Of a stretch of 64,000 nt of DNA, positions 16,468-59,695 are shown one piece after another (position 1 is the stretch's first letter; each line of letters starts with the position of its first letter). A program made the position numbers and the translations under genes. The stretch is from the NCBI GenBank assembly GCA_016930085.1, contig JAFGHO010000016.1, positions 31,340-95,339 on the forward strand, in the 5' to 3' direction. The DNA comes from Spirochaetales bacterium. Its GTDB lineage: Bacteria > Spirochaetota > Spirochaetia > SZUA-6 > JAFGRV01. The notes under the pieces are model-generated. The model was not told the origin of the DNA and ran no database searches. It saw nothing but the letters and a program-made list of their open reading frames with translations.

Positions 16468-16468
16468 A

Positions 16469-19732: not shown

Positions 19733-19733
19733 T

Positions 19734-23061: not shown

Positions 23062-23358
23062 GCCGTCCTCCTTATTAATAGAGTGGATTCCGTTACTTCG
23101 GGAGAAAAAACTCTTTATAAAAACTCTCGATATACGCCGGACCTGAATCCGGTAATATATCAAGCGGTCTGTTTTACCCTTTTCCCGGTACACCATCAAT
23201 TCTATACTATTTTTCGGAAAAATACCATATAAAACAAAGACGAAAGTACCTTGGGGGGGTACGGAAACAAAAAACTTGACTATGGCGAATTTTCAATGTA
23301 TATTTTCATCGAGAGACGAATAATCGCAAAAAAAACATTATAAAAAAGGAAAGAAGCT

Positions 23359-24426: not shown

Positions 24427-24472
24427 CGCGCTTAAAACAGTTCCCGCCGGTTGACTTATTAAGGCCGCGCGG

Positions 24473-44600: not shown

Positions 44601-44977
44601 TTTATCTTTTCGGCAACGGCAAAGTCCGGGGCGAAAAGCACGGAATGCACCTTTCTCGTCCGGTCGCCCTTTTTATAGATCGAACTGATTTCCGCCGAAA
44701 GGCAGAAACGGATATCGATATTCCCGCACCCGGCATCGTTGAACGGAAGATTCTCCGGGAGGTCGTCCGGCGGATCTTTCAGGATGAAAAAACCGTTCGA
44801 ATCCGGTTTCAGTTTTTCCTTGAGTTCGGAAAACCAGACGGGGTGAGTAAAATCCCCGGTCCCGATCAGATTAATGCCCTTGACCCTCGCCCACCGGTAA
44901 AACCCTTCGAGGTTCGACGCTTTGCTCGTCGCGCGTGAATGACATGAATGAACGTGAAGATCCGCTATATAATTCAT
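41639..44977 (-). CDS. PHP-domain phosphoesterase fused to UvrD/PcrA-like superfamily-1 DNA helicase
   Basis: The N-terminus 'MNYIADLHVHSCHSRATS' is a PHP His-cluster. A Cys4 cluster 'CGICCDPE...CPVCGG' follows. The UvrD Walker A is 'ITAGPGTGKTKT', with 'AITFTNRASKEL', 'DEFQDINPGQYEL' (motif II) and C-terminal helicase motifs. Confidence 0.7.
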   Translation of the reverse strand: MNYIADLHVHSCHSRATSKASNLEGFYRWARVKGINLIGTGDFTHPVWFSELKEKLKPDSNGFFILKDPPDDLPENLPFNDAGCGNIDIRFCLSAEISSIYKKGDRTRKVHSVLFAPDFAVAEKINRKLDAIGNISSDGRPILGLDVKHLLEIVLDASEDAYLVPAHVWTPWFSLFGSKSGFDTIEECFEDLSGYIFALETGLSSDPEMNWRWSALDRYTLISNSDAHSPQKLGREANIFSTGLTYDAMFRALKTGEGFEGTIEFYPEEGKYHLDGHRKCGICCDPEETRRLSGECPVCGGKLTVGVMHRVLECADREKGIKPAASAGFRYCIPLPEIVSEITGTGPGSKGVLSTYAELVGFGGNEFTFLLDVPLPDIEQRFGPVYREAIGRMREGRIRPKPGFDGEFGVIRVFDADELEALLGQESLFEAGNLPERKKFSPRRSSGHKGIRKGEKGKSERSGEPESKDTLNREQREVLNTTEGALLITAGPGTGKTKTLTSWIARLIETGQASSGQVLAITFTNRASKELASRLSVMLGKSSGGIKVCTFHGFCLDIIRERFPRIRNIYDKYRRIELLCILNPDMKKKEVLRLADRMERLFMNPRESSDKRLRSLAQRYLDAVKAYGGFDLSSLITGTCACLQKDPELLQSLRMRYRFIAIDEFQDINPGQYELVSTLFPRYHETDDGLRRCLFAIGDPDQAIYGFRGSDVKLFFRLGREYSPVSITLINHYRSTEEILRSAASVIGKNGATGKKTLVPVRGRGEQVLIFRAGEPVEEGAFIASRIEELVGGMSFTSVDSAFAGKCEYSFSDIAVLTRTKAAGEALVPFLAGAGVPVSGGAARPVFSEKPFSCAGSLLHLLLNENDIVSLRDVLVHLYGVFSENEPLPFLDENAKQTEDRCLMRGLAESGLLTEKQQRKTDELLAFHGDLCKLLQEKGVPAVLECIFDTFPCFPVTDQTIVMKKDALLESAGRFQSDLEGFLTYCMIGPNESGCPFKTDTVRLLTFHASKGLEFPVVFVAGCEEGITPLTGPSSDPDEERRLFYVALTRAKDLLYLSWSKRRKVFGKWKENEQSRYLRDIPARLTSDAEGARKKTADEDYRQRLLFKDYTQ

Positions 44978-45258
44978 CCCCGCCAGATTAACAGATTCGG
45001 GGGTGATTGTACAGGGACTTTTTTTCCTGTTTCGCCGGGAGTGTATCCCCGCATCGAACGGCGGATTGACGATATCGCCGGCCCTTAGCGGCTTTGCTTC
45101 GTTACACGTTGAAGCCGCGCGTTCATGGCGTGTTTCTCCATGATTGTGCGGAAAACCGCCTGTGTTACTGCGTCTTTTCGTATTGTTTTAACGAAAAAAA
45201 AATTATAAATGTCATTTTTTTGTTTTTTTTTTATTGACTCTTTTGGAATTGTATTTTA

Positions 45259-45274
45259 CGATTTGCGCAAATCG
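45259..45274. promoter_or_regulatory. Perfect 16-bp palindrome CGATTTGCGCAAATCG in the promoter region of the precursor operon
   Basis: It lies about 110 bp upstream of the precursor ATG, between a TTGACT -35-like hexamer (45234) and the RBS. An extra CAAATCG half-site follows. Confidence 0.3.
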
Positions 45275-45382
45275 TAATGATTTACACAAATCGCAAGCGC
45301 CCGGCGATGCCGTTTTTATTCATTTGGATGACATTACCTATGCTCGTTGAGCATTGACATTTTTACGAAAGGAGGAAACCTT

Positions 45383-45529
45383 ATGTACGAATCTCCATCA
45401 ATTGAAATGCTGGGTGATTCCCAGATGAACAACGTAATGGGAGCCTTTGTTTGGGCAATAGGTCCTGTTTTTGTTGCAGTAGCAGCCGTTGTATTACTCA
45501 TTTTGTCAGTAATTGATATCACTCCGTAA
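45383..45529 (+). CDS. RiPP/bacteriocin precursor peptide (48 aa): double-glycine-type leader with a Cys-free hydrophobic core
   Basis: An AGGAGG RBS lies 7 nt upstream. The leader is MYESPSIEMLGDSQMNNVMGA and the core is FVWAIGPVFVAVAAVVLLILSVIDITP. Leader positions L-12, M-7, V-4 and G-2/A-1 fit the GG-leader consensus. Confidence 0.6.
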   Translation: MYESPSIEMLGDSQMNNVMGAFVWAIGPVFVAVAAVVLLILSVIDITP

Positions 45530-45552
45530 CTGATTATCAATTAACTGAGCCA

Positions 45553-45587
45553 CGGTCGGAATTGAGATATTATCTCTTTTCCGACCG
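45553..45587 (+). terminator. Partial terminator/attenuator hairpin between the precursor and the maturase genes
   Basis: A 9-bp stem cggtcggaa...ttccgaccg has a ~17-nt loop and is followed by a weak T-rich tract. Confidence 0.4.
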
Positions 45588-45665
45588 ATTTACATTTGTA
45601 AAAGCTCATTATCGTATAATAAAATACTGATGAAATTATAATACAAATCAGGAAAGGAGTCAACT

Positions 45666-46712
45666 ATGGCGGAATTGCAATTGCCGGTGAATACATCGAT
45701 ACAGATCAAGCATGCAGAAATCGTAAAAGGGCCCACACAAATCGCTTTCGATATCACGAACAAATGCAATTTTAGGTGCCTTCACTGTTTTAATCGAAGC
45801 AGCGAGAACGACCGGATGAACGATGAATTAACCGACAAACAGGTAAAATATTTTATAAAAGATATAATCAAAATGAAACCGTTTAATATCTGTCTGTGCG
45901 GGGGAGAACCCCTGATCAGGTTTCATTTGATATGCGACATCTCCTCGATGCTCAAGGAGAACGACATCATGGTTTCCATGGTGACGAACGGATACCTGCT
46001 GACGGAGGAAAAGGCGGAAAAATTGTTCGCTTCCGGCGTACGCCGCGTCCAGGTAAGCCTCGATGGGGCCTGTCCGGAAACCCATGAGCGATTGAGAGTG
46101 AAAAAGGGAAGTTTTAATAAAGCGATCGAGGCGATAAAAATATTCAAGACTGCGGGATTCGACGATGTCGGTGTGGCGTTCACCCCGACCAATTTCAATT
46201 GTCACGAGGCAAGCGATGTGATCGCTTTATGCCGGAACCTCGGTGTCAGGGATTTCAGGGTACAGCCATTGATGTGTATCGGCCGGGCGAAGACGAACAT
46301 GGGAAATATACTTCCTTCGAATTACCAATACCGCAACCTCGTCAAGACACTCAATGAATCAAAGACCGAATATACAGACATTAAGATCGAATGGGGCGAT
46401 CCGATCGACCATTTGATTCGCTTCCGTACCGTCACACAACACCTGAACGTCTTTCTCGTCGTTCAGGCGAACGGAGATATAGCGGCTTCCCCGTATTTGC
46501 CGATAACGATCGGCAATATTAAAAAACACTCGATTCTGAAATACTGGAAAAAGGGATTGCCGAAAGTCTGGCAGTTCGAACCGATAAAAAAAATAGCGAA
46601 TAACATCAAATGCATGTCCGATTTCTCCAAAGAACACAAGGATTTGCCGATTGTTTGGTTCGATCAGAATATTCGATACGATGTTATCGACGACAAACTT
46701 ATCAGTTCATAA
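45666..46712 (+). CDS. Radical SAM peptide-modifying enzyme (partial SPASM/twitch-like C-terminal region)
   Basis: The radical SAM motifs are 'FDITNKCNFRCLHCF' (CxxxCxxC) and 'CLCGGEPL'. 'SLDGACPETHERL' is also present. The C-terminus has only scattered Cys (NFNCHE, IALCRN, LMCIG, IKCMS), so no full seven-Cys SPASM. Confidence 0.8.
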   Translation: MAELQLPVNTSIQIKHAEIVKGPTQIAFDITNKCNFRCLHCFNRSSENDRMNDELTDKQVKYFIKDIIKMKPFNICLCGGEPLIRFHLICDISSMLKENDIMVSMVTNGYLLTEEKAEKLFASGVRRVQVSLDGACPETHERLRVKKGSFNKAIEAIKIFKTAGFDDVGVAFTPTNFNCHEASDVIALCRNLGVRDFRVQPLMCIGRAKTNMGNILPSNYQYRNLVKTLNESKTEYTDIKIEWGDPIDHLIRFRTVTQHLNVFLVVQANGDIAASPYLPITIGNIKKHSILKYWKKGLPKVWQFEPIKKIANNIKCMSDFSKEHKDLPIVWFDQNIRYDVIDDKLISS

Positions 46713-46744
46713 TATTTTAGTTATAATAAAATGGAGATGTAATC

Positions 46745-47653
46745 ATGAAAAAAGGAACACCGCACTTTAAAAGTGAAAATCTGCTTTACATGAGGGAGGA
46801 AAACAAAGGTTGTGTCACACTGTTATCCAAATTCCACCCCGAACTGAGAGAATTGGTGATAAACAAAACAACGAAAGAAATCATCGATTTATGCGACGGT
46901 CAAAACACGATCGAAGACATCATTTCAAAAATGAAAGCGAAATATCCGATGGTCCAGTCGGCCATCATTACAAATGACGTACACAAAATTCTCGCTAGTA
47001 CCTCCAGATTGATGTTGATTCAATGGGAACACGAGAACCCGTACCTTTTTCTGAGAGAAGAAATCATAGACGATACGTACGGATTGAGAATCGGCGTCGA
47101 AGACGATTTGTTGAAGATAAAGAAATTTATTATGGACAGCGATATTCTTACAAATGGGAACGACGTTTCTTCCTCGCATTTTTATTATAAAAATGTTTAT
47201 GTCAACACATATGAATACGACGAAGTTTTATTGCGGCAGAAAATATTCAATTTTAACGAGGAGTTCTTCTTTTTAACAAAAAACGGGGAAATAGAAGGAT
47301 TATTATCCTTTCAGCTGCCCATTCCCCCGTCAAAGGCCGCCGTATTGAAGATGTGCATTTGTGCAAAAGAATATTTCAGGGAATTGTTTCGCTATGCATC
47401 GGACAATCTCCCGCACATATCCGTTTCGCAGCTTTCGAAAATTAAATTTATTATCAGTTCGAAGGAGCCTGTTGACGACTCCCTGGTTGAATTGCTAATA
47501 TCTGAAGGATTCGGGGACGAGGGATTGTTCAGGGACGAACTGGGTTTTGATCATGATATTTCCGTCATGGGCTTGAGCTACGATCCCGTCCTTATCGATG
47601 AGATCGAAAAAAACAGGAAAGCGGCTACCGCTATCGGCGGACTGGCGCAGTAG
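46745..47653 (+). CDS. PqqD-like RiPP recognition element (RRE) fused to a ~200-aa domain of unknown function
   Basis: The N-terminal block 'VTLLSKFHPELRELVINKTTKEIIDLCDGQNTIEDIISKMKAKYP...ITNDVHKIL' matches the PqqD/RRE consensus ('ln.ta..iw.l.dG..t..ei...l...y......DV..fl'). Confidence 0.5.
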   Translation: MKKGTPHFKSENLLYMREENKGCVTLLSKFHPELRELVINKTTKEIIDLCDGQNTIEDIISKMKAKYPMVQSAIITNDVHKILASTSRLMLIQWEHENPYLFLREEIIDDTYGLRIGVEDDLLKIKKFIMDSDILTNGNDVSSSHFYYKNVYVNTYEYDEVLLRQKIFNFNEEFFFLTKNGEIEGLLSFQLPIPPSKAAVLKMCICAKEYFRELFRYASDNLPHISVSQLSKIKFIISSKEPVDDSLVELLISEGFGDEGLFRDELGFDHDISVMGLSYDPVLIDEIEKNRKAATAIGGLAQ

Positions 47654-47721
47654 AAACGGGACCGGCGCACAATCGGACGGATTTACCGAAATATCACAAG
47701 GGGAGTGACAGGAATCGAACC

Positions 47722-48486
47722 ATGTATCGACGTTATATGTTAAACGTATCGTTTTTCGTTTTGAGTTTCTTTTTCTCGCATTGTTTCATTTTCGCGGAAC
47801 CGGCCCTGGGGAAAATCGTTTCGGATATAAAAAACAGTAAAAAGGAAATGAGCGGCAAAATCGCCGATATAACGATCATACAGGAAAGCGAAATATATTC
47901 GGAGAAGGGAACGATGCACCTCCGGTCGACGATTTACAAAAAGTCAGATAAATTCCGGGTCGAGAATTCCTGTGAGTTCGCCGGCGCAATTACCGAAGAA
48001 ACAATCATCTATGACGGCCGCGATTACTGGAAAATAGGAAGCGGCCTGAAACAGAAAATAAACAGGGACGAAATGCTGGAGAAGAACAAAACGATTGCCT
48101 TGCAGAAAAACTGGTGGGAAATAATTTCGGAGGAATCACGGCTTGAACAAGCCGACGATGAGGTAACGAACTGCTATATCATCCTGAGTGATAACAACAA
48201 TGAAACATATCGGTGCTGGGTTAACAGGGACAATCTGCTTCTCGAAAAAATCGAAATCATGTTTTCCGAAGACGACAGCATCATTATCGTCTACGGCGGT
48301 TTTGAATCAGTTGTCGACGGGCACGAAATGGCGACGAAAATCGAGCTGTACAGAAACGGTATATTGGACTCGAGAATTTCAATCAAAAAGATCGACATAA
48401 ATACCGGCGTCTCCGACGAGTTATTCGATCCGGACAGGGAAAAAAGTTTCGACCTGAATCGTATATTAAAGGATCTTTTTCAATAA
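47722..48486 (+). CDS. Secreted protein, LolA-like / unknown function
   Basis: A signal peptide 'MYRRYMLNVSFFVLSFFFSHCFIFA' is present. The length and composition suggest a beta-rich lipoprotein-carrier-like fold. The fold assignment is weak. Confidence 0.35.
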   Translation: MYRRYMLNVSFFVLSFFFSHCFIFAEPALGKIVSDIKNSKKEMSGKIADITIIQESEIYSEKGTMHLRSTIYKKSDKFRVENSCEFAGAITEETIIYDGRDYWKIGSGLKQKINRDEMLEKNKTIALQKNWWEIISEESRLEQADDEVTNCYIILSDNNNETYRCWVNRDNLLLEKIEIMFSEDDSIIIVYGGFESVVDGHEMATKIELYRNGILDSRISIKKIDINTGVSDELFDPDREKSFDLNRILKDLFQ

Positions 48487-48563
48487 ATCGGTATAGCGAA
48501 TACCCGAACAATAAACCATTGTTTATATGATCGATAAAAAATTACAATCAGAGAGGATGTTAT

Positions 48564-49055
48564 ATGAGATTATCCAGAATAATCGGATTCCTGAACAGGA
48601 GAAAGGAAAATGAAATGACGGGGGCCGGATTTATCGCCGGAACCGTCCTGGGAATTATCATCGGGCTGTATATCTTTCTTTCGGTACTTATTCTGAAAGA
48701 GGTCACATTAAACCAGCTCGAACTCTCACTCAAGCCGTACGAACGGCTTATCAGCATGGACCCGGTTACCATTTATTATATTACCCTCATCGCGACCCCG
48801 CTTATCGTGGTCTTCATTCATATGATAATCGGTGTGGTGATCGGGATCGGTGTCAATAAACTGAAAAAACCGTCCGCCTGGAAGATCTTGCTCGGCGGGG
48901 CCGCTCTGGGGACGCTTTTCGGCTTTATCACGAGTGCCCCGGCCCCGAGGATTGTTACGTTTATAGTCTGTTTGGCGGCGTGGATTGTTTTTTCCCTTGT
49001 TTTTCTCCTGACCGTTCGTTTATCGAACAGGGAACCGGAGGATAAAACGGCCTGA
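48564..49055 (+). CDS. Small 4-TM membrane protein (candidate immunity protein)
   Basis: Four hydrophobic helices are present. The RBS is 'gagagga'. No catalytic motifs were found. Confidence 0.4.
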   Translation: MRLSRIIGFLNRRKENEMTGAGFIAGTVLGIIIGLYIFLSVLILKEVTLNQLELSLKPYERLISMDPVTIYYITLIATPLIVVFIHMIIGVVIGIGVNKLKKPSAWKILLGGAALGTLFGFITSAPAPRIVTFIVCLAAWIVFSLVFLLTVRLSNREPEDKTA

Positions 49056-49172
49056 TGCCCTGAAGGGAAAAGACAGAGAGATAATGAAAAGCGGCGGGGC
49101 GTATTTCCCGGCGACACCCGAGTCGATTGCGGTCTCCGCGGAAATGCGGATGGAAATATAACTCATGGAAAA

Positions 49173-50948
49173 ATGGAAGAACCGATGAATAAAACTATAC
49201 TGGCGTATAAGGATTTAAAACGGTTACTCGGAATTTTTACGACCTATATTAAAGGGAAAAAGGGGTTATTGTTCCTCGGCGTATTTCTGGGGATAATAAG
49301 CCGGTTATGTGCGTTATCCATCCCCTTGTTTTCGAAATTTATTATCGACACCGTCATCTTCAAAGGTTTTGACAGTTACCTCAACATAACGATACTCTCC
49401 GGGATCGTCATTCTCATTCTTCTTGCGGGGTCATCGATTCTGTCGAATTATCTTCTCTTTAAGGTAAACGGTCTGGGCGGGATCAAGTTCAAGTATTCTT
49501 TTTTCAGAAAACTGCAATATGCGCCATTTACCTTTTTTACCACTATTCAAAAAGGCGCGATCGCCCACAGAATATTGACGGACACCGAACGGATTATCGG
49601 TTTCTGGACGCAGACCGTCGCGACATTGCCGCTGATCGTTATCCTGGGCGCGGGCGGGGCGATAATGCTTCATTACAATCCCGTTCTCTCCTACTTTATC
49701 TTTAGTATTATTTTGCTTCAAATCCTTATCATCGTCGTCTTCAAGGGCCCGATCATGCGGTCCTCATTTTCAATCAAGGAAAACATGGAAAAGCTCACTT
49801 CCTATACCGTGGAGTTTTTTACAAAAATAGAACTGGTGAGAACCCATTCCACCGAAAAAAGCGAACAAAAGAAATTTCTGGGTTCAGTACGGAAATTGTT
49901 CCGGGCGGCATTCAGAAACTTCATGCTCAACAAGGGATATAACAACATCATCGCCTTTCTTTCCTATCTGTGGATCTTCGTCGTGCTCTGGTACGGCGGC
50001 ACACAGATACTGGCGGGTAACATGACAATAGGGACGCTTTCCGCGTTTTTACTCCTTGTCAATATCCTCAACACTCCCATTTTCATGCTGACCGAACTGG
50101 TCCTTTCATTTCAACAAATACGAACCAGCCTTTACCGGTACGAGGAATTCGCAAGGGTCGGAAGATATCTGCCGCCACCTTCCGGCGGCAGGCCCCTGAA
50201 ACCATACAAACCCCAGGAAGGCAGGATCGAATTGAAAGGCGTATCGTTCGGCTACAATGACCATTACGTTCTCAGAAACATCAATGAAGTCATCGAACCG
50301 AATTCCATAACTGCCCTGGTCGGCAGGACCGGCGCAGGTAAATCCACCTTTTGCCGGCTACTGATTAGACTGTTCGATCCGCAATCGGGCTCCATCTATC
50401 TGGACAACAGGGACATCAGGGAAATCAAAATACCTTCTTTAAGAAAATCGATTCATCTCTCTCTGCAGAACAACCATGTGATGAACGGCACACTCTGGGA
50501 AAATCTGACATACGGTACCGGTCATGTCGATAAAAAGGATGTCCTTCTGGCAATGAAAAAAGCGGGAATCGATTTTCATTATAAAATGCCGGCCGGATTC
50601 GACACGTTGATCGGTGTTCACGGATTGAATCTGTCAGGCGGGGAATGCCAGCGGATCGCCATAGCGAGGGCATTGCTTTTAAATCCGAAGGTTTTCATAT
50701 TCGACGAAACGACGGCATATATCGACAACAGGACGGAAGAAAAGATCAAGGATGTATTATGCGAATTGAAACGATCGGGCACCGTTATTCTCATCACGCA
50801 CCGCAGCTCGACGCTGGATGTCGTCGATAATGTCCTGTTATTCGATAATGGAACGATAACGGAATCCGCACCCTCGCATGTTCTGAAACGGGACAGGGGA
50901 AGCGAGTTTTTTAAATCTTTTTATTCAAAAGGAGGCACCCCGGAATGA
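49173..50948 (+). CDS. ABC transporter, fused permease/ATPase (peptide/bacteriocin exporter type; no fused C39)
   Basis: Six N-terminal TM helices precede Walker A 'GRTGAGKST', the signature 'LSGGECQRIAIARAL' and Walker B 'IFIFDETTAYID'. Confidence 0.85.
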   Translation: MEEPMNKTILAYKDLKRLLGIFTTYIKGKKGLLFLGVFLGIISRLCALSIPLFSKFIIDTVIFKGFDSYLNITILSGIVILILLAGSSILSNYLLFKVNGLGGIKFKYSFFRKLQYAPFTFFTTIQKGAIAHRILTDTERIIGFWTQTVATLPLIVILGAGGAIMLHYNPVLSYFIFSIILLQILIIVVFKGPIMRSSFSIKENMEKLTSYTVEFFTKIELVRTHSTEKSEQKKFLGSVRKLFRAAFRNFMLNKGYNNIIAFLSYLWIFVVLWYGGTQILAGNMTIGTLSAFLLLVNILNTPIFMLTELVLSFQQIRTSLYRYEEFARVGRYLPPPSGGRPLKPYKPQEGRIELKGVSFGYNDHYVLRNINEVIEPNSITALVGRTGAGKSTFCRLLIRLFDPQSGSIYLDNRDIREIKIPSLRKSIHLSLQNNHVMNGTLWENLTYGTGHVDKKDVLLAMKKAGIDFHYKMPAGFDTLIGVHGLNLSGGECQRIAIARALLLNPKVFIFDETTAYIDNRTEEKIKDVLCELKRSGTVILITHRSSTLDVVDNVLLFDNGTITESAPSHVLKRDRGSEFFKSFYSKGGTPE

Positions 50949-51595
50949 GATATGGGCCGTATCGGCGTCTTGCGTGCTCCCTCCTTTTTCTTGCCGTCAC
51001 ACTCAATGCCGCCTCGGGCGGCCAGACCGTCGTCACACCGTATTACCGGCTGAAGTTCGAATCGATGGACCGGCAGATATCCGAGTATGCGTGCGGCATC
51101 GCCGTGTTGACGACGTTATTCAATCATTACTTCGAGATAAACCTTTCACAACAAGAAGTCATCGATCGATATGTCGCACAAATTATGGAAGAAAGGCGAG
51201 GAATTAGTTTTTTAGACTTAAAAAAAATCGCCGCCGACCGGGGATTTACCGCAAAGGGATTTAAAATCAACCTCGCCGCCCTGCTGGAATTTTTGAAAGT
51301 CAATACCGTGCCGCTTATCATTCATCTGAATGTCAGGTACGGCGCGGAGAAGGTCGGTCACTTCTGCCTGTTGCTTGGTGAAACGGACGGTTATTTCATT
51401 ATCCAGGACCCGGCATACGGCAATTGCGTTTATACGAAAAGCCAGTTGCTCGATAAATGGAGCGGCAATATCCTCGTTATCGTTCCGCCGGAAAACGACA
51501 AGACGACCGTTGAACGCAGCCGGGAGAATATGGAAAAAGTCATCGAACGGGGAATAGAACGAATACAAAGGATGTTATATTATGAATCATACTAA
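50945..51595 (+). CDS. Standalone C39-like cysteine peptidase (double-glycine leader peptidase type)
   Basis: A signal/anchor is present. The catalytic Cys lies in 'SEYACGIAVLTTLFNHY'. The His is in 'VGHFCLLLG' and the Asp in 'IIQDPAYG'. It overlaps the ABC stop by 4 nt. Confidence 0.6.
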   Translation: MRYGPYRRLACSLLFLAVTLNAASGGQTVVTPYYRLKFESMDRQISEYACGIAVLTTLFNHYFEINLSQQEVIDRYVAQIMEERRGISFLDLKKIAADRGFTAKGFKINLAALLEFLKVNTVPLIIHLNVRYGAEKVGHFCLLLGETDGYFIIQDPAYGNCVYTKSQLLDKWSGNILVIVPPENDKTTVERSRENMEKVIERGIERIQRMLYYESY

Positions 51596-52493
51596 AAACC
51601 CTCTCTTCATCATACTTTGCGCGTCTATTTCGCTCTGTACCGCAAACGATATACACGCGCAATCGGAGAATTCATTATTCAAATTCGGTCTGGAAAAAGC
51701 TTTGGTCCTTTCGGATTCGCTCCATTACAGAAGCGCGACGTCAACGGATGTACAGGAACGGACGATCACAAACACGTTTCAGGCGGGCTATTTCTTTACC
51801 GATGCCTTGTCTCTGTTTCTTACCGTTCCTTTTTCATGCGCTATCTATTCGATTAAAAACATCAATAAAGAAGCAGCCTATGAAACCCAGGCGTTCCTTC
51901 GACTTGAAAACAGCAGCGCGGCCCTTCATTATAAACTCGATTTTTCCCGTATGACCCTCAAAGTCATAGCGGGCCTTGAAATTCCGTCGATGGCCGCCGT
52001 CTGTGACTATTCATCGATCGACAATCCGGGCGACGTTCTCATATCATTCGATTCCGAGTATTCCGATGCCGCACTCGATGATCTCAGAATGTTGACATTG
52101 CTTGCCGGTGAGACATGCTGTTTCACCATAGACCCCGTCATATTGTTCGTATCCCTGAATATTTCATACCCCCTTTGGCGGGAGAAGGATACCGAAGCCA
52201 TCTACACGACGTTCAAGAGCCAGTTGATTCAATCATTGTATTTCATCGTCAACGACTCGATCAGTCTTTTTTACGATATCGGCATCATGCTATACAAGGG
52301 AGAAAATGCCGCCATGATTGAAACCTATGTTGTAAACGGCGGATGCAATATATTGATCTCCCCGACGACGGAAATCGGATTAAATGTAATGACCGCTTTC
52401 AGCGGAAACACGGCCTTCCCGGGTCTCGGCGTCACGCTGACAAAAATAATCAAGGCGGAAGGAAGCGACGCCGGTATTCCTGAAAGCCGTTAA
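51582..52493 (+). CDS. Secreted hypothetical protein
   Basis: A signal peptide 'MNHTKNPLFIILCASISLCTANDIHA' is present. It overlaps the upstream gene by 14 nt. Beta-rich, no motifs. Confidence 0.35.
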   Translation: MNHTKNPLFIILCASISLCTANDIHAQSENSLFKFGLEKALVLSDSLHYRSATSTDVQERTITNTFQAGYFFTDALSLFLTVPFSCAIYSIKNINKEAAYETQAFLRLENSSAALHYKLDFSRMTLKVIAGLEIPSMAAVCDYSSIDNPGDVLISFDSEYSDAALDDLRMLTLLAGETCCFTIDPVILFVSLNISYPLWREKDTEAIYTTFKSQLIQSLYFIVNDSISLFYDIGIMLYKGENAAMIETYVVNGGCNILISPTTEIGLNVMTAFSGNTAFPGLGVTLTKIIKAEGSDAGIPESR

Positions 52494-52556
52494 CCGTCCG
52501 AAGTCCAGGCCGGCGGCGGACGGCCGTTTCCGGAACCGGTTGTCGTGAGAGGGAGT

Positions 52557-53411
52557 ATGAATAAAAAAATCATCCTCTATATTCTCGTCAATTGCATACT
52601 CATCGGAATAGTGGCGGCCGTTTCCGTTATCCTCCATACCGAAATCCGTTATTTCGCGGCGCTTTATATGTTTTTCCCGTTCATTGCGACACTCGTCGCC
52701 GCCGTAAAATACCGGATACCGGCAGCCGACCTGGGATTGAAAATAAGCATCGGTCCGTGGTACGCGGCGGCGTGGATACTCCCCTTTTTTCTCGCCGTTC
52801 TCTCGATCCTCATCAGTCTGATGATGGGACCCGGCATGTCGTTTTCCCCCGGCATGGAAGGACTCGAACGTTTCGGCATCGCCCCCGATGCATTGCCGTC
52901 AAACGGGGGGCTTTCCGTTTGCGGTTGGATCGGCCGTATTTTCCTTGCGTTTGCCGGGGGAATCACCGTCAACGCGATATTCGCGCTCGGAGAGGAAATC
53001 GGATGGAGGGGGCTTCTCTACAAGGAATTGCGCGGCCTCGGTTTCTGGAAATCGTCGCTTGCCGCGGGACTCCTCTGGGGCGTCTGGCACGCGCCGGTCA
53101 TTCTTTCCGGCTACAATTACCCGAACCACCCCGAAATCGGTGTTTTCATGATGACCGCATTCTGCATTCTGCTTTCCCCCCTCATGCAGTTCTTGCGGGA
53201 AAAAACGGGTTCCGTCATACCCCCCGCCGTTTTTCACGGCACTATCAACGCCTTTGCGGGATATACCGTCATATTGATCAAAGGCGGAAACGACTTGCTG
53301 ACCGGCATGACCGGACTGAGCGGGATGATCGTTTTCCTGCTTATGGACGGCCTTTTGTTCGTTTATATGCGGACAGGGAAAGCGGATGGAGAGGGCAACC
53401 GGGAAGTTTGA
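52557..53411 (+). CDS. CPBP-family (CAAX/Abi) intramembrane metalloprotease, bacteriocin-immunity-like
   Basis: Multiple TM helices are present. Motif 1 is 'FALGEEIGWRGLLY' (EExxxR), with 'FWKSSLAAGLLWGVWH' and 'VFHGTINAF' (His motif). Confidence 0.7.
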   Translation: MNKKIILYILVNCILIGIVAAVSVILHTEIRYFAALYMFFPFIATLVAAVKYRIPAADLGLKISIGPWYAAAWILPFFLAVLSILISLMMGPGMSFSPGMEGLERFGIAPDALPSNGGLSVCGWIGRIFLAFAGGITVNAIFALGEEIGWRGLLYKELRGLGFWKSSLAAGLLWGVWHAPVILSGYNYPNHPEIGVFMMTAFCILLSPLMQFLREKTGSVIPPAVFHGTINAFAGYTVILIKGGNDLLTGMTGLSGMIVFLLMDGLLFVYMRTGKADGEGNREV

Positions 53412-53794
53412 TTTATAGAGAAACATATTTTCGGGCGAGGACAACTCTTCGCAGGAGTTACGGAAAAACAAGGGAAATAAAGAATAATAGATTATAAAAT
53501 CGGAAACAGCCATTTTTCAGAATATCTTGCTGATATGCCTTGTATCATTGCTGTACAAAACAGGGTAGATTAATTGCCTGATCTCCATTGTATATTGAAG
53601 CTGAAAAACAAACAAATCATTATATCAAAAGGAGATCAAGAATGTAAAAAAATATCACGATAATAATGCAATTTTGACAGCCTATTTAGCCATGCGAACC
53701 TATAAAGTCGAAAAGAATGCGAAAGGTTTTTCTTCATGGAAACGGTTTATTGAGATGGTTTTAGGTCAGATTCAATATCTTAAAGGTAAGCGGC

Positions 53795-53832
53795 CTTACA
53801 AACCGCCTCCAAAGGAGGCGGTTTGCTTTTGT
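53795..53832 (+). terminator. Strong GC hairpin terminator in the intergenic region after the RiPP operon
   Basis: An 11-12-bp stem caaaccgcctcc-aaa-ggaggcggtttg is followed by CTTTTGTT. Confidence 0.55.
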
Positions 53833-53883
53833 TAATCGACAGCGCTTTCGGGGGAGATTATTCCCATGAATAAGGTCTCCCTA

Positions 53884-54327
53884 TTACAGAAGCACCACAC
53901 CCGGAAAAATCAGATGGATAACCGCGACCGACATACCGGTTATCCCTATCAGTACATGGTACTTCTTGATGGTCGATCTTATTTTTCCGGTATCTTGTTT
54001 AACAATCTCCCCTTCCACTTCTTTATCCTTTTTTGTAAACACGGCGAGCAGCAGGCTTCCGCCTATTGCACAACCCGTCAGTGCGGGGAGCAGGTCTTCC
54101 AGAATAAAAATCCCTCCCGGTTTGATAAACACGAAAAACTGAAGAATCCCGACAGCCAGTGCCGTGATCCCTAATACGGTTTGTATACCCTTGTTGACCA
54201 AAATTCTCCTTATCGGATTAAGCAGCTTAATATCGGTTTCTATATTTCTGAACATGAGAGCCAATCCCCCCAGGAATAGCGTTAGAATGGAAATAAAATA
54301 TAATTGCAGCATGTTTGACTCCTCCAC
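53884..54327 (-). CDS. Hypothetical 4-TM membrane protein
   Basis: Hydrophobic helices throughout. No motifs. Confidence 0.4.
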   Translation of the reverse strand: MEESNMLQLYFISILTLFLGGLALMFRNIETDIKLLNPIRRILVNKGIQTVLGITALAVGILQFFVFIKPGGIFILEDLLPALTGCAIGGSLLLAVFTKKDKEVEGEIVKQDTGKIRSTIKKYHVLIGITGMSVAVIHLIFPGVVLL

Positions 54328-54538
54328 TTTATATTAAAATACCTATTTGTTATGGCTATATACCGTATTCTTATTTTTTAATAGTTATAATGACACATAT
54401 CCTCTTTTTACTGCTTTTTTTCACTTCTGCGGCTCCACGGGATTTTGCCGCCCGTTCTCTTTTTATATTGATTTTTTTATCCGGAATCAATAATCCGCTT
54501 GTCTAAAAATTATCCAGGGTGTAATATGATACGCTGTC

Positions 54539-55249
54539 ATGCCGTATAGTATTTTAATTGTGGATGATGATAAAGATTTCAGAGTCGAGTTCCGTGATAT
54601 ACTGGAAGAAGAATATGATGTATATGAAGCAGCAAGCGGAGAAAAGGCTATTGAAATCATAAAAAAACCGAATATTGTCGATCTCGCCATTCTGGATGTT
54701 AAAATGCCGGGAATACAGGGAACAGAGGTTTTAAAACAATTAAAGCAACTGGTACCGGACTTGATAATCATAATTGTTACCGGTTATGGTTCAAAGGATG
54801 TCATAATTGAATCCTTAAGAAGGCATGCCGATGATTTTCTGGAAAAACCTTTGAAAATAGAAACGGCGCTGCAAAGAATCAAACAGCTTTTATACAACAA
54901 ACAATGTGAAGTAAAAGGCGTCATTGAAAAATTAAAGCATTTTATCGAAAAAAATTTTCACAAGAAAATAAGTCTAAAGGATGCTTCAAACGTTGTCTGT
55001 TTGAGTCCCAAATATATCTCAAAAATATTTAAAGACGAGGTCGGGATTGGATTCAATGAATATAAACTCAGGTTAAAAATGGAGAGGGCAAAAGAATTAC
55101 TGGGTTTGCATACGTACAATATCAATGAGATTGCCGGTAAAATAGGATATCTGAATATCGAATCCTTTGCAAGGATATTTAAACACCTGACAGGTGTTAC
55201 TCCCTCTGAATATAGACAGCTTTTATTTCATGGAGAAAAACATGAATAA
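54539..55249 (+). CDS. Response regulator with AraC-type HTH output
   Basis: The receiver is 'ILIVDDDKDFRVEF...LAILDVKMPGIQG'. The C-terminal AraC HTH is 'LKDASNVVCLSPKYISKIFKDEVG ... IAGKIGYLNIESFARIFKHLTGVTPSEYR'. Confidence 0.8.
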   Translation: MPYSILIVDDDKDFRVEFRDILEEEYDVYEAASGEKAIEIIKKPNIVDLAILDVKMPGIQGTEVLKQLKQLVPDLIIIIVTGYGSKDVIIESLRRHADDFLEKPLKIETALQRIKQLLYNKQCEVKGVIEKLKHFIEKNFHKKISLKDASNVVCLSPKYISKIFKDEVGIGFNEYKLRLKMERAKELLGLHTYNINEIAGKIGYLNIESFARIFKHLTGVTPSEYRQLLFHGEKHE

Positions 55250-56840
55250 ATTGTTAAAAACCATATTTAGTAAAAACCGGTATCATCCCGACGAATGTGA
55301 TGTGATATTCAATGCTTTTACCGATCCCGTCATTGTCTATAATGCTTTAGGATGTATTATAAAAGCAAACAAGGCAGCAGAAGATTTTTTACAATTCAAT
55401 CCGATAGGATTACATACCATCGGACTTGCCGAAATTCCCGCATCCGGTTTATCGACCGGGAAACCGGATGCGGTCGAGACTCTTTTATCAAAGGCTTTAA
55501 AAGGAGAAATCGGCAAAGATGTATCGTGTCAATTTACGGATAAAAACGGAAATAAAAGGTTTTGCAGCTGTTCAGCCGCGCCAATCCTCGATCGTACCGT
55601 TGTAGCCGGAATTATCCTTGTTTGGCATGACATTACAGAAATAACAGAAAAAGAAAAACAATTGGAAATAAACAATAAAAAGCTGGAAAACCTGGTTAGC
55701 GAAATAAATGAAAAGCAAAAAGTATCGGATAAACAGATAATAAACGATAAGAAAGAAATTGATACAAAAGATTCACAGATAATGGTTTCAAATAAACTGC
55801 TGGAAATAATATTTTCCAATACTCACTTTCTGATTGCTTACTTATCCACGGACTTTACTTTTATCCAGGTGAATGATGCTTATGCAAGGGCATTTAATCG
55901 GTCGCCTGATTTTTTTGCGGGAAAAAATCATTTTGATTTATTTCCCAACGAAGAAAACAAGGCTGTCTTCTCTCACGTTGTAAAATCGGGAGTTTCCTAT
56001 ATAACATATGTAAAGCCGTTTTTTCATCCCGACAAATCGGAATCCGATGCTACCTATTGGGATTGGAGTCTTCAGCCTATAAAAAACAATAATAAAGTTG
56101 AAGGAATCATTTTAGTCCTCATCGATGTGACCAGAAGGAAAAAAGCGGAAGAAGATTTATTTAATGCAAAAAGATTATCGGATATCGGAACACTGGCGGC
56201 GACGGTGGCCCATGAACTCCGCAATCCCCTTGCGGTCATTCAGGCAGCTATTTATAATATCAAGAGAAAAAGTCGGAATAGCGATATTGAGAAACATATA
56301 GAAAATATCAACGCAAAAGTCGAAGAGAGTGAACAGATTATCAATAATCTGCTTGGTTATTCGAAGTTTAAAATTCCTCAAAAGACGGACGTTTCAATTT
56401 ATAATTTTTTAAATGATCTGTTTGATGACATCCAGGGCAAAATGACTAAAGACACTATTATCATCAACAGAAAATACGAATCCCTAAAAGATACGATTAT
56501 TCATATCGATCCCGTCCAAATTCGTGAAGTACTCAATAATATAGTGAATAATGCATATCAAGCCATACCGCAGGTTAACGGCCGTATTGAAATTCAGGGG
56601 AATCTCTCAGGTAACAATCGATTGAATTTATACATTACGGATAACGGAAACGGAATAGAAAATGAAGATTTGGAAAAAATATTTAATCCCTTTTTTACAA
56701 ATAAGTCCAAGGGCACGGGATTGGGGCTAACCATCTGTAAAGAGTTGATCAAACTGCATAATGGAAATATAGAAATACTTAGTCAAAAGGGAGAGGGCAC
56801 TATTGTGAGGATTTCCCTTCCTCTAAACGTGATACCATGA
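55242..56840 (+). CDS. Cytoplasmic PAS-domain sensor histidine kinase
   Basis: Two PAS-like regions and a coiled-coil precede the H-box 'ATVAHELRNPLAVI'. The N/G boxes are 'NNIVNNAYQAI' and 'DNGNGIE...GTGLGLTICKELI'. The start MNKLLKT follows a GGAGAAAAAC RBS and overlaps the upstream RR's last codons. Confidence 0.8.
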   Translation: MNKLLKTIFSKNRYHPDECDVIFNAFTDPVIVYNALGCIIKANKAAEDFLQFNPIGLHTIGLAEIPASGLSTGKPDAVETLLSKALKGEIGKDVSCQFTDKNGNKRFCSCSAAPILDRTVVAGIILVWHDITEITEKEKQLEINNKKLENLVSEINEKQKVSDKQIINDKKEIDTKDSQIMVSNKLLEIIFSNTHFLIAYLSTDFTFIQVNDAYARAFNRSPDFFAGKNHFDLFPNEENKAVFSHVVKSGVSYITYVKPFFHPDKSESDATYWDWSLQPIKNNNKVEGIILVLIDVTRRKKAEEDLFNAKRLSDIGTLAATVAHELRNPLAVIQAAIYNIKRKSRNSDIEKHIENINAKVEESEQIINNLLGYSKFKIPQKTDVSIYNFLNDLFDDIQGKMTKDTIIINRKYESLKDTIIHIDPVQIREVLNNIVNNAYQAIPQVNGRIEIQGNLSGNNRLNLYITDNGNGIENEDLEKIFNPFFTNKSKGTGLGLTICKELIKLHNGNIEILSQKGEGTIVRISLPLNVIP

Positions 56841-57217
56841 AAAAGCGCATACTGATAATCGACGACGATATTCAGCTTTGTGAAGAATTTCAGGATATTT
56901 TAGTAGCTGAAGGGTTTTGTGTAAACATAGTTCACAACGGACTTTCCGGGAAGAAAATCCTGGAAAATGAAGTATTTGATATACTCCTTTTGGATATAAA
57001 AATTCCCGGTTTATCTGGTTTTGAAATTCTGAAATGGCTAAAGGATAATCATTATCAGTTGAGAATAATTATATTAACGGGAAGGCCTTTGTACAGGGCA
57101 GGGTATATAACGGATAAGAACGACGTGGAAGAAATATTGCTGGATTATGCCGATGAAGTCATCAACAAACCATCAACCATTGAAAATATAATAAATAAAA
57201 TCAAACACTATCAATAA
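56837..57217 (+). CDS. Single-domain response regulator receiver
   Basis: 'ILIIDDDIQLCEEF...ILLLDIKIPGLSG'. It overlaps the kinase stop by 4 nt. Confidence 0.7.
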   Translation: MKKRILIIDDDIQLCEEFQDILVAEGFCVNIVHNGLSGKKILENEVFDILLLDIKIPGLSGFEILKWLKDNHYQLRIIILTGRPLYRAGYITDKNDVEEILLDYADEVINKPSTIENIINKIKHYQ

Positions 57218-57342
57218 AAGCCGGCGCGGCCATTGTCAAAGGTAATAGAAAAACGGAAAACAGACAGAAGAAACAGGAAACACCTGATGTTAATTGACCG
57301 TAATTCGTCTAGAATTGGAACGTTCCCAATAAATGGAGGGTC

Positions 57343-57660
57343 ATGATGAGTTTTGTCGATCGAATGAAAAAAATTATCCAAAAAAGCCTTGAAGACTCGC
57401 CGGTTTCTTCAGAGCAGCAATTGATAAAGACTAAAGAATACGGAAAGAAGAATTTTTTAATCCGCGACATTAGTCGGTTGGAAAAAGCAATGGAAAATAA
57501 ATTTATAATTATCGGGAATGAAGTTTATTCGGCCTTAATGGAGAAACACCTGGGTACTATCGACAAAGAGACACCGGAAATAAAGGATATTCTTCTTGAC
57601 ATTATGAACCTTGAAAAACTGATATCAGCGAAAAAAATTCTATTAAAAAAAGTGGATTAA
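57343..57660 (+). CDS. Hypothetical protein
   Basis: 105-aa ORF with an AT-rich context and a GGAGGG RBS. No motifs. Confidence 0.3.
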   Translation: MMSFVDRMKKIIQKSLEDSPVSSEQQLIKTKEYGKKNFLIRDISRLEKAMENKFIIIGNEVYSALMEKHLGTIDKETPEIKDILLDIMNLEKLISAKKILLKKVD

Positions 57661-57898
57661 AATGCACCAATCACGGATATGGAAATAGATCAATAAAAAA
57701 GGGAAATCCGCTCTTGAGTTAAATGCGGTTTTGAATGAGAATGTATGTATGAGAATTCAAGGTATTCTCGGATGAGCTTAGTGAGCCGACATTTGCATGT
57801 ATATTGTTTTCATTTGTAATTAGAATACTTTTTAAGCACATAAAAATGTTTTAATTGTAGTAAAATCTTAATTGTTCTTCACATGAGGAGAAAAGAGT

Positions 57899-58216
57899 AT
57901 GATCACAAAAGATGAATTTGTCAACGACTTGAAAAATCAACTTGATGAACTGAATACCGGAATCGACAATATCGAAAAGAAGGTCAAAGTAGTCAGGGAA
58001 GGATCCAAAGCGAGGCTTCAAGCACGGATAACGTATCTTCGTGAAAAGCGTGACGCTGCCCTGTCAAAGCTTCAGGAAGTAAAAAATACGAGCGAAGAGA
58101 CATGGCAGGACATGAAAAAGGGAACGATCAATATCATTAATTCTCTTAAGAACGCTATATTGAAAACAAAGTCGCATTTCAAAAAAAGGAAAGACGATAT
58201 CATCGTCGAGAATTAA
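57899..58216 (+). CDS. Hypothetical coiled-coil protein
   Basis: 105 aa, Lys/Glu-rich. A GAGGAG RBS is present. Confidence 0.3.
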   Translation: MITKDEFVNDLKNQLDELNTGIDNIEKKVKVVREGSKARLQARITYLREKRDAALSKLQEVKNTSEETWQDMKKGTINIINSLKNAILKTKSHFKKRKDDIIVEN

Positions 58217-58270: not shown

Positions 58271-59695
58271 TCACCCGACATATTTTATGATCCCTTCCGC
58301 CGCCCGTTTCCCCGCTTCGATGGCGCGGACGACCAGGGAGGGACCGCTTGCCATGTCGCCGGCCGAGAAAACGCCTTTGACATTCGTCATCCCCTCCTCA
58401 TCGGTCTTTATGAATCCGTTCGGGGATACCTCGATTCCCATGGATTCGACGAGCCGCCCGTTGCCGTGGCCTGAAAATCCCATGGCCAGGATCACCAGGT
58501 CCGCCTCGAGGTCGAATTCGGTTCCGGGTTTTTCTTTCATCCGTGCCGGGAGCCCGTTTTCTCCGGCAGACCATTCGACACGGACCGCTTGCAATCCCGT
58601 CAATTTCCCTTTTTTCCCGGAAAACCCGGTCGTCTTGACCGACCAGAGCCGGGTTCCGCCCTCTTTGTGGCTGCTCGACTCGCGGAGCTGATACGGCCAC
58701 TTCGGCCATGGTGTGAACTCCGATCTCGCAGCCGGGGGTTCGGGAAGGATCTCGAGTTGATGAATCCGTGCGGCACGCTGGCGTATCGCGGTGCCGAGGC
58801 AGTCGGCGCCGGTATCGCCCCCGCCGATAACGACCGTCTTTTTCCCGGTCGCGAGAATCTGCCTGATACCGCTTACATCCTCTCCGGCCACACGCCGGTT
58901 CTGCTGAATCAGGTACTCCATCGCGAAGTGAATCCCGTCGAGGTTTCTTCCAGGCACATCGATATCCCGCGGCGCTTCGGCCCCGCAGGCCAGGCATATC
59001 GCGTCGTATCTGCTTTCGAGATAATGAAACGAAATATCGGTTCCCGCCTCGATACCGGTTTCGAAGACGATCCCTTCGGCCTTCATGAGATCGACCCGCC
59101 GTTCGACGATGTTTTTCTCCAGTTTGAAATCCGGAATCCCGTACCGCAAGATACCTCCCGCCCGATGGGCTTTCTCGAATACGGTAACGGTATATCCCGC
59201 CCTGTTGAGAAAGAGGGCGGCGGCGAGTCCCGCCGGTCCCGAACCGACAACCGCCACCGACAACCCGTTTCTTTCCGCCGGGGGTTCCGGGAAGATATAT
59301 CCTTCCCTGAATCCCTTTTCGATAAGCGCGAGTTCTATCTGGCGGATCGTCACCGCATCATCGTTGATGGCGAGCACGCAGGATGTCTCACAGAGCGCAG
59401 GACAAATTCTCCCGGTAAACTCGGGAAACGGGTTTGTCGAAAGGATGAGCCTGATCCCTTCCCGCCATTTTTTCCGGTACACGAGTTCGTTCATTTCGGG
59501 TATGATATTTTCAACGGGGCACCCGTAACCGTGGCAGAAGGGGGTCCCGCATTCCATACAACGCGCCGCCTGGACGTGGAGCGTTTCTTCGTCGAGCATC
59601 CGCTCCACCTCTCTGAAATCCCTGACCCGCTCCTCCGGTTCGCGGTACACCGGATCGGTCCTGTCGTATTCGAGAAAACCGCCCTGTTTACCCAT
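58271..59695 (-). CDS. gltD: Glutamate synthase (NADPH) small subunit
   Basis: The Fe-S Cys cluster is 'CMECGTPFCHGYGCP'. The FAD/NAD Rossmann motifs are 'VAVVGSGPAGLAAA' and 'VVIGGGDTGADC'. Confidence 0.9.
   Translation of the reverse strand: MGKQGGFLEYDRTDPVYREPEERVRDFREVERMLDEETLHVQAARCMECGTPFCHGYGCPVENIIPEMNELVYRKKWREGIRLILSTNPFPEFTGRICPALCETSCVLAINDDAVTIRQIELALIEKGFREGYIFPEPPAERNGLSVAVVGSGPAGLAAALFLNRAGYTVTVFEKAHRAGGILRYGIPDFKLEKNIVERRVDLMKAEGIVFETGIEAGTDISFHYLESRYDAICLACGAEAPRDIDVPGRNLDGIHFAMEYLIQQNRRVAGEDVSGIRQILATGKKTVVIGGGDTGADCLGTAIRQRAARIHQLEILPEPPAARSEFTPWPKWPYQLRESSSHKEGGTRLWSVKTTGFSGKKGKLTGLQAVRVEWSAGENGLPARMKEKPGTEFDLEADLVILAMGFSGHGNGRLVESMGIEVSPNGFIKTDEEGMTNVKGVFSAGDMASGPSLVVRAIEAGKRAAEGIIKYVG

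Follow-up and report, generated by a model that had tools for sequence, protein, structure and literature searches.

The locus described here raises the question of whether an AT-rich stretch that joins a peptide operon to a signalling module was acquired as one piece, and whether the module serves the operon. It lies at 45-58 kb of the window, that is, the whole stretch of 64,000 nucleotides analysed from contig JAFGHO010000016.1 of a Spirochaetales bacterium (assembly GCA_016930085.1). In a preliminary description, made from the sequence alone, the stretch had been taken for one horizontally acquired island, with an operon for a peptide made on ribosomes and then modified post-translationally (RiPP) followed by its dedicated regulator. 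The analysis reported here indicates that the region is an ordinary genomic mosaic. Probably it consists of three independent units, namely a nine-gene peptide cassette (45.2-53.8 kb, all genes on the plus strand), a membrane-protein gene of the TP_0070 family and a low-GC signalling block of five genes (54.35-58.2 kb, ~3.8 kb), and not of one island. The observations behind this reading are the gene content, the composition statistics, the separate recurrence of cassette and block in other genomes, and the collinearity of the block with low-GC relatives. The adjacency of cassette and block in the window is secondary.

Composition of the 45-58 kb region

The GC content per kb is 0.53-0.58 in the immediate flanks, 0.41-0.51 at 45-54 kb and 0.34-0.37 at 54-58 kb, the whole-window mean being 0.482. 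The flanks are thus GC-rich, as had been described (PHP-UvrD 0.534, gltD 0.584, gltB 0.554), and the claim that 45.2-57.9 kb is markedly AT-rich holds insofar as total GC is lower at 45-54 kb and much lower at 54-58 kb. However, the operon stays within the spread of the other genes, with a total GC of 0.41-0.54 for the individual cassette genes (z -0.1 to -1.9; +1.2 for the gene of the CPBP protein), and other stretches of the window equal it in low GC (0.40 at 9-10 kb, 0.42-0.47 at 17-26 kb). The sole statistical outlier in composition is 54.35-58.2 kb. As for the lower-GC stretches elsewhere, 9565-10161 and 17591-25312 have a total GC comparable to that of the cassette (0.40-0.47) and a GC at third codon positions (GC3) of 0.47-0.57.

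A clearer separation is obtained from synonymous sites. In the 35 genes outside the region that were used as background, GC3 is 0.576 ± 0.056, with a minimum of 0.467. Compared with these, the eight long cassette genes have a GC3 of 0.51-0.66 (z -1.1 to +1.6), and their synonymous-codon likelihood is the same as that of the background (z -1.4 to +0.9). Because both GC3 and codon usage of the long genes match the background, the idea that third positions are dominated by A and T is wrong for the peptide operon, and the GC deficit of the cassette is located instead in codon positions 1 and 2, with z values down to -2.3. For the signalling block, the genes for the response regulator, the kinase, the receiver-domain (REC) protein and a 105-residue open reading frame (ORF) have a GC3 of 0.33-0.39 (z -3.4 to -4.4), and the sll1863-family gene at its right end, with 0.47, lies between block and host values. 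The tetranucleotide composition, expressed as the L1 distance of a window segment to the rest of the window, agrees with this division: 54-58 kb reaches 0.475, the cassette has 0.17-0.25, and none of the windows that avoid 54-58 kb exceeds 0.25, whereas the 52-56 kb window, which overlaps the low-GC block, has 0.30.

These two compositional regimes are split by a strong terminator and by a gene on the opposite strand. What had been described as an AT-rich gap after the terminator holds the minus-strand gene of the TP_0070 family, whose GC3 (0.507, z -1.2) is intermediate or near that of the host. By composition it appears to be an ordinary native membrane gene that separates the cassette from the signalling block. 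Taken as a whole, then, 45-58 kb shows neither a uniform atypical composition that includes synonymous sites nor marks of mobility such as an integrase, a tRNA target or flanking direct repeats; no integrase or transposase domain was found there in Pfam scans, and the 64-kb window contains no tRNA gene. That the total GC of both units falls below that of their immediate flanks is what a single acquired island would predict, and the same idea, with the module as a dedicated quorum or stress regulator of the peptide operon, gains something from the sll1863-type stress protein in the block. Nonetheless, the two regimes and the elements between them count against it. A stretch recognized by eye as an AT-rich island can therefore merge units of different history, and here GC3, tetranucleotides and the recurrence of each unit elsewhere split them.

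Recurrence of the cassette and the block in other genomes

The radical S-adenosylmethionine (rSAM) enzyme of the cassette has 490 homologues at E ≤ 1e-10, and the genomic contexts were looked up for five. In two of these (L082/L083 and L085/L086, with 65% and 56% rSAM identity) the same nine genes occur in the same order; in L084 (61%) the cassette genes are present with a rearranged order, and in L173 (56%) most of them are present. The fifth, L172 (53%; 11981-16488), corresponds to a monoderm-style arrangement, where six tandem precursors beginning MEKYESPTIEQVGG are found among bPH-domain and SdpI-like genes, plus an ATP-binding cassette (ABC) exporter. Also, a 330-kb megaplasmid of Clostridium felsineum carries a copy with 49% identity (L174, 7094-11259), comprising a PqqD fusion, an rSAM enzyme, a 51-residue precursor beginning MDYESPMIQSLG and an ABC transporter, all annotated in generic terms only. 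The proteins of the window cassette share 35-65% amino acid identity with the copies elsewhere, and the flanking genes differ in every carrier examined. Moreover, the GC3 of the cassette follows each host, being 0.23-0.43 in the other carriers and 0.51-0.66 in the window. Given its patchy distribution and its different context in every carrier, the cassette is best regarded as accessory; since its synonymous sites have the host composition, it would also be a long-time resident. In sum, it appears to be a self-contained unit, conserved and of patchy distribution, with a long residence in the host lineage.

A related possibility, which would complement the mosaic reading and to which we give slightly less than an even chance, is that the cassette was acquired as well, long ago and from a low-GC lineage, its synonymous sites having since drifted to the host composition while AT-biased amino acids remain. 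The patchy distribution with a new context in each carrier is consistent with this, as are the low GC at four out of five further metagenomic carrier loci (0.24-0.39; L173 has 0.47), the presence of one family member on a megaplasmid, and the low GC at codon positions 1 and 2 in several cassette genes. In addition, the precursor gene still has a GC3 of 0.347 over its 48 codons, about three binomial standard deviations below the host mean. On the other hand, low GC at the first two codon positions is frequent among membrane and secreted proteins whatever their origin, no boundary marks were found around the cassette, and the collections searched gave no relative without the cassette at this site.

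The signalling block has a different set of relatives. Full-length orthologues of its kinase have 58-74% identity, and those with a name are metagenome-assembled genomes (MAGs) of Spirochaetales; no plasmid match was found for the kinase. In L087 (GCA_016935735.1) and L088 the genes for the regulator, the kinase, the REC protein and a 104-residue ORF follow in the order of the window, and in L089 the contig runs through the regulator and kinase genes and ends inside the REC gene, with upstream genes that are different again. Between positions 54462 and 57204 (~2.75 kb) the window is 78-80% identical in nucleotides to L087 and L088, including ~75 nucleotides upstream of the regulator gene, and the amino acid identity to these loci is 81% for the regulator and 76% for the REC protein, the whole module ranging over 73-81%. 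The sll1863-family protein has 68% amino acid identity to the product of L087 11464-11790, which is located there beyond a gene for a B12-binding rSAM protein. As this gene is missing in the window, an indel of ~2.8 kb separates the copies. The B12-binding rSAM gene, of 532 residues, stands directly after the small ORF in both loci (L087 8508-11161; L088 3382-4980), and in L087 it lies between the homologues of the two small ORFs of the window.

With respect to composition, the block (GC 0.33-0.39) resembles the L087-L089 loci (0.33-0.39) and the homologous genes within them (0.28-0.39), so that its atypical composition matches that of a homologous segment in another lineage. Together with the collinearity and the 78-80% nucleotide identity to low-GC Spirochaetales loci, this points to horizontal acquisition, and the five-gene block was probably transferred from a low-GC Spirochaetales lineage into the higher-GC host. 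The horizontal origin that had been proposed for the whole stretch is thus retained for 54.35-58.2 kb and dropped for one island. As in other transferred blocks without mobility genes, GC, GC3 and tetranucleotide composition break sharply at both ends and composition-matched homologues exist elsewhere; what sets the block of the window apart is its length of only 3.8 kb and five genes and the absence of an integrase, a tRNA target and flanking repeats.

It could be argued that the low GC of this segment stems from an assembly or binning chimera, in which reads of a low-GC relative were joined into the contig, or that local constraints have kept a vertically inherited segment rich in AT. However, two Logan contigs of run SRR13394437 contain one junction of the block each, at 100% identity: L001 runs from the TP_0070 gene into the regulator gene (up to 54733) and L171 from the kinase gene (from 55865) through to gltD; moreover, the full kinase is on the NCBI MAG contig. 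A chimera is nonetheless compatible with the fact that these two independent contigs break inside the block. For either origin, it could be invoked that all sampled relatives of this lineage are low in GC, that the block is somewhat AT-richer than its neighbours even in low-GC hosts, and that mobility genes and target-site repeats were not found. However, vertical descent should have given the segment the GC3 of the host, as is seen in the cassette and the 35 background genes, and the GC3 of the block equals that of its low-GC homologues instead. Taking both sides together, either origin seems quite improbable. The contig breaks at 54733 and 55865 may be due to poor coverage of AT-rich DNA or to differences between strains.

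Several observations nevertheless weigh against the mosaic with a transferred block. The search for boundary marks around 54.3-58.3 kb gave direct and inverted repeats at chance level only and neither an integrase nor a tRNA gene. The collections searched gave no close relative of the host in which an empty TP_0070-gltD site could be seen. In its low-GC hosts, too, the block is a little richer in AT than its neighbours, so its bias may be partly intrinsic. The nearest sampled copy is only ~80% identical, which means that the donor is unsampled and that the transfer need not be recent. With the Logan contigs broken inside the block, the interval 54734-55864 is represented by the MAG contig alone. 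For the cassette, the low GC3 of the precursor gene is not explained if the unit is considered fully ameliorated. Finally, the regulatory link could have newly evolved in this genome, the imported block having been wired to the operon, although we regard such a rewiring as improbable.

The proposal that the module is the dedicated regulator of the cassette draws its support from the proximity of the two only, and in the nine other loci examined they are never adjacent. No AraC-type regulator or PAS kinase adjoins the cassette in L082/L083, L084, L085/L086, L172, L173 or L174, the one in L172 being adjoined by an unrelated OmpR-type pair, and in none of the three module loci (L087, L088, L089) is the cassette in the neighbourhood; the neighbours of the module in L087 and L088 bear no relation to the cassette, with the B12-binding rSAM gene downstream. 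Co-location of the regulator with the peptide operon is therefore not conserved across carriers. The divergence from the sampled relatives is also unequal, with 73-81% amino acid and 78-80% nucleotide identity for the module versus 35-65% amino acid identity for the cassette. In addition, a search of the whole window that allowed at most 3 mismatches found the inverted repeat upstream of the block only at its own site, and the cassette promoter bears a different element, a palindromic operator.

The architecture of the module leads to the same conclusion. Its three genes overlap or abut and encode the domains of a two-component system, which agrees with the earlier outline of a three-gene module at 54539-57217, the block itself having five genes. 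The kinase was rightly described as cytoplasmic, since no transmembrane-like segment is detected (the highest mean over 19 residues on the Kyte-Doolittle scale is 1.54, against a threshold of 1.6). The block most likely senses an intracellular signal. Classical quorum regulators of bacteriocins consist of a membrane kinase of the HPK10 type and a LytTR regulator. Such three-component systems (pheromone, HPK10, LytTR) and the window module are alike in that a kinase and a response regulator lie near a peptide operon; however, in the window there is no pheromone gene, the kinase carries two PAS domains and is soluble, DNA binding by the regulator would rely on an AraC-type domain (HTH_18) instead of LytTR, and cassette and module are not conserved together.

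It is true that no regulator gene other than that of the module lies inside the cassette or within ~10 kb of it, and that both units are accessory by their distribution. Even so, since the units recur separately and are never adjacent, the dedicated-regulator idea is unsupported, and a single island carrying the operon and its own regulator is very unlikely. We infer that block and cassette have no regulatory link. The same tests that split the region thus also removed an attractive pairing of regulator and target.

Gene content and likely function of the peptide cassette

The operon was recognized from the outset as one of the RiPP type, and this identification is borne out by a leader-bearing precursor, an rSAM enzyme with a PqqD fusion, an ABC exporter and a C39 peptidase; an rSAM enzyme with the CX3CX2C motif plus a PqqD-type recognition element is the combination expected of a RiPP cluster. 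The precursor belongs to a family in which a transmembrane-like hydrophobic core, frequently ending in IDITP, comes after the leader M-x-Y-x-S-P-x-(I/V)-E-x-L-G. Homologous small ORFs adjoin the rSAM gene in L082, L084, L085, L172, L173 and L174, and across the precursors of the window, of these loci and of P0361-P0366 the leader is conserved and the hydrophobic core variable. Most members of the family have no cysteine in the core, and neither has that of the window. C39 peptidases are known to cleave peptides whose leader ends in a double-glycine-type site. In the diderm-type precursors a G-[A/S/E] pair occurs at about residue 20, and positions -4, -7, -12 and -15 would be hydrophobic if the cut falls after GA; in the L172 precursors a GG pair occurs earlier, at residues 13-14. 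The precursor has no match in Pfam or NCBIfam. Among 1.84 billion proteins, the window peptide matches only six representative clusters, a count that is a lower bound because small ORFs are under-called. At the nucleotide level the precursor gene is 71% identical to that of L082, and the enzyme genes have lower values (51-62%).

The three cysteines of the rSAM motif are invariant in the family, as are C76 and C78. No SPASM domain, whose seven C-terminal cysteines serve auxiliary Fe-S clusters, is matched in Pfam; the window protein has one cysteine beyond residue 204 (C316), and the CX2CX5CX3C motif is not conserved in the family. The NCBIfam matches of the enzyme, to AhbD/NirJ, GeoRSP, MftC, PqqE, SkfB, PapB-type maturases and others, all fall far below the cut-offs. 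As for the PqqD fusion, the PqqD domain is matched in six of six orthologues (Pfam, E ≤ 5) with nothing else consistent, and a PDB profile search returned PqqD proteins only, weakly (E = 0.055 and 0.67); neither these Pfam scans nor the PDB search assigned the C-terminal domain of ~200 residues to a family. A single-sequence AlphaFold2 model of the fusion had a predicted local distance difference test score of 41 and was discarded. Among the remaining proteins, the LolA-like one, whose L173 orthologue has a faint match to the TP_0789-like family PF17131, is a putative periplasmic carrier. The secreted protein of 303 residues, which matches no Pfam or NCBIfam family, is a putative outer-membrane beta-barrel or export component. 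Abi-type proteins occur in bacteriocin loci, where they are linked to immunity, and by this analogy the CPBP protein is a putative self-immunity or processing protein.

From this list of parts, a mechanism can be inferred, including the route of export and the role in immunity. The PqqD-type domain would bind the YxSPxxExLG leader, and the rSAM enzyme would modify aliphatic or aromatic residues of the cysteine-free hydrophobic core. Then, the ABC exporter would carry the peptide over the inner membrane, the secreted C39 peptidase would cut off the leader in the periplasm, and the LolA-like carrier together with the outer-membrane-like protein would bring the greasy product out of the diderm cell, with the CPBP protein shielding the producer.

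The control elements are consistent with a self-contained operon that has its own promoter, palindromic operator and terminator. A perfect palindrome of 22 bp at 45256-45277, with the halves TTACGATTTGC and GCAAATCGTAA (as one string, TTACGATTTGCGCAAATCGTAA), overlaps the -10 element of the candidate promoter, and its 14-mer is repeated 19 bp downstream (45279-45292). The 14-mer pattern has four strand-wise matches in the window versus 1.19 expected, three of them at the cassette promoter; the remaining one is inside gltB, with one mismatch. Together with the repeated 14-mer, the palindrome has the appearance of a tandem operator that would serve some dimeric regulator. The hairpin between the precursor and enzyme genes may act as an intra-operon attenuator. 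At the other end, the strong terminator that had been noted is indeed present, with a stem of 12 bp (8 G-C pairs) and a T-rich tail. In four loci, the sequences upstream of the cassette do not align with one another. Small ORFs within 53412-53880, among them one that crosses the terminator hairpin, were taken to be non-coding.

In comparison with known rSAM clusters that use a RiPP recognition element (RRE), such as the ranthipeptides (PapA/PapB), the sactipeptides, mycofactocin (MftABC) and pyrroloquinoline quinone (PqqADE), the cassette is alike in its short precursor with a conserved N-terminal leader, in the PqqD-type domain combined with an rSAM enzyme that has sub-threshold maturase matches, and in an ABC exporter and a C39 peptidase encoded within the operon. 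However, several differences are apparent. The enzyme is without the SPASM cysteine motif and stays below the cut-off of every curated family, PqqD is fused to a domain without detectable family, and neither Pfam nor NCBIfam includes the precursor family. Also, unlike those of sactipeptides and ranthipeptides, the core cannot form thioether links because it has no cysteine. This suggests that the cassette is an uncharacterised variant among the rSAM/RRE-dependent RiPP clusters. A full-text search of the literature found no description of it, and a 2014 survey lists Spirochaetes with linear azol(in)e-containing peptide clusters only.

A further comparison concerns the chemistry. In the epipeptide systems YydFGHIJ and EpeXEPAB, an rSAM epimerase acts on a small hydrophobic peptide, accompanied by a protease and an ABC transporter and without a PqqD partner. 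These systems and the cassette would share a cysteine-independent rSAM modification of aliphatic residues and a short membrane-active peptide, which makes them a plausible working analogy; however, no specific relationship in sequence was found, YydG/EpeE is not among the listed NCBIfam matches and the make-up of the operon differs, and epimerisation by the cassette enzyme is a guess by analogy. With regard to the peptidase, FilB and FapD of the Fap amyloid system are similar in being stand-alone C39 proteins with a signal peptide beside a putative outer-membrane protein. They are the best NCBIfam matches of the cassette C39 protein, at 69 and 65 bits, far below the cut-offs of 475 and 330, and its substrate would be a leader-bearing peptide of 48 residues, not an amyloid subunit as for FapD.

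Moreover, the cassette could represent a new class of rSAM peptides, defined by a cysteine-free transmembrane-like core, a maturase without SPASM and an exit from the diderm cell through ABC exporter, periplasmic C39 peptidase, LolA-like carrier and outer-membrane protein; we consider this possible rather than probable. If so, the chemistry would be new or epimerase-like, since the maturase lacks SPASM clusters. In any case the cassette is a useful lead to a widespread, unnamed family, with the YxSPxxExLG leader, the SPASM-less enzyme and the PqqD fusion in monoderm and diderm versions, and its characterisation would extend the known classes of modified peptides by a hydrophobic one and illustrate how diderm bacteria secrete such products.

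Feature coordinates and flanking genes

Table 1. Features between PHP-UvrD and gltB, with positions counted from the first nucleotide of the window.
Feature	Coordinates	Strand	Evidence and remarks
PHP-UvrD	41639-44977	-	ORF listing and domain scans; 1112-aa PHP-domain/UvrD-helicase fusion
Candidate cassette promoter (TTGACT-17-TACGAT) and operator region	45234-45296	+	Hexamers at 45234-45262
48-aa precursor, MYESPSIEMLGDSQMNNVMGAFVWAIGPVFVAVAAVVLLILSVIDITP	45383-45529	+	YxSPxxExLG leader; core hydrophobic, cysteine-free, ends IDITP
Hairpin, possible attenuator	45553-45587	+	17-nt arms, 88% complementary; between precursor and enzyme genes
rSAM enzyme	45666-46712	+	CX3CX2C C34/C38/C41; Pfam Radical_SAM 1.5e-27, Fer4_12
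PqqD-domain fusion	46745-47653	+	PqqD at residues ~37-88, Pfam 1e-5; plus ~200-aa conserved C-terminal domain
LolA-like / TP_0789-like secreted protein or lipoprotein	47722-48486	+	Weak LolA_like match (0.0064); N-terminal hydrophobic segment; conserved in cassette
163-aa membrane protein	48564-49055	+	~4 transmembrane segments; conserved in cassette
ABC exporter	49173-50948	+	Pfam, NCBIfam; membrane domain and ATPase, without N-terminal C39 domain
Stand-alone C39 cysteine peptidase	50945-51595	+	Pfam Peptidase_C39 1.4e-19; signal-peptide-like N-terminus by eye
303-aa secreted protein	51582-52493	+	Position kept in cassette; 5 orthologues aligned
CPBP/Rce1-like intramembrane protease (Abi type)	52545-53411	+	Pfam Rce1-like 4.8e-15
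Intrinsic terminator	53799-53835	+	Hairpin 53799-53825, 3-nt loop
TP_0070-family membrane protein	53884-54327	-	Precomputed PF27362 on identical gene in L001; 4 transmembrane-like segments
Upstream region of block	54462-54538	+	Inverted repeat ATTGAT-N13-ATCAAT 54467-54491; promoter-like hexamers TTGTCT/TAATAT 54499-54527, read from sequence; conserved with L087 and L088, putative control region
Response regulator, REC and AraC-HTH	54539-55249	+	Pfam Response_reg 6.5e-26, HTH_18 4.6e-19; GC3 0.329
Soluble PAS-PAS-HisKA-HATPase_c histidine kinase, 532 aa	55242-56840	+	HisKA 2.4e-11, HATPase_c 2.5e-25
Stand-alone REC protein, 126 aa	56837-57217	+	Pfam Response_reg 8.9e-19
105-aa protein	57343-57660	+	No family match; same-position ORF in L087/L088, 53-56% aa identity; travels with module
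sll1863-family stress-response protein	57899-58216	+	NCBIfam NF052504, 80.1 bits vs cut-off 35; right end of low-GC block
gltD	58271-59725	-	ORF listing and domain scans
gltB	59688-63941	-	ORF listing and domain scans

Rfam searches matched no family. With regard to the genes that flank the region, no close relative of the host was found with PHP-UvrD and GltD in the contig collections searched. The top full-length match of PHP-UvrD has 53% identity (L002, GC 0.374) on a contig that is cut off upstream of the gene, and a scan of metagenome contigs with this protein gave nothing nearer over the full length. For GltD, the top match (75%) is on a contig of 4.8 kb (L170), with RloB-type genes downstream and neighbours unlike those of the window. 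Finally, the full-length relatives of PHP-UvrD, with 36-53% identity, have a patchy distribution that includes Thermodesulfobacteriota, Latescibacterota, Bacteroidota, the MAG of an Asgard archaeon and others.

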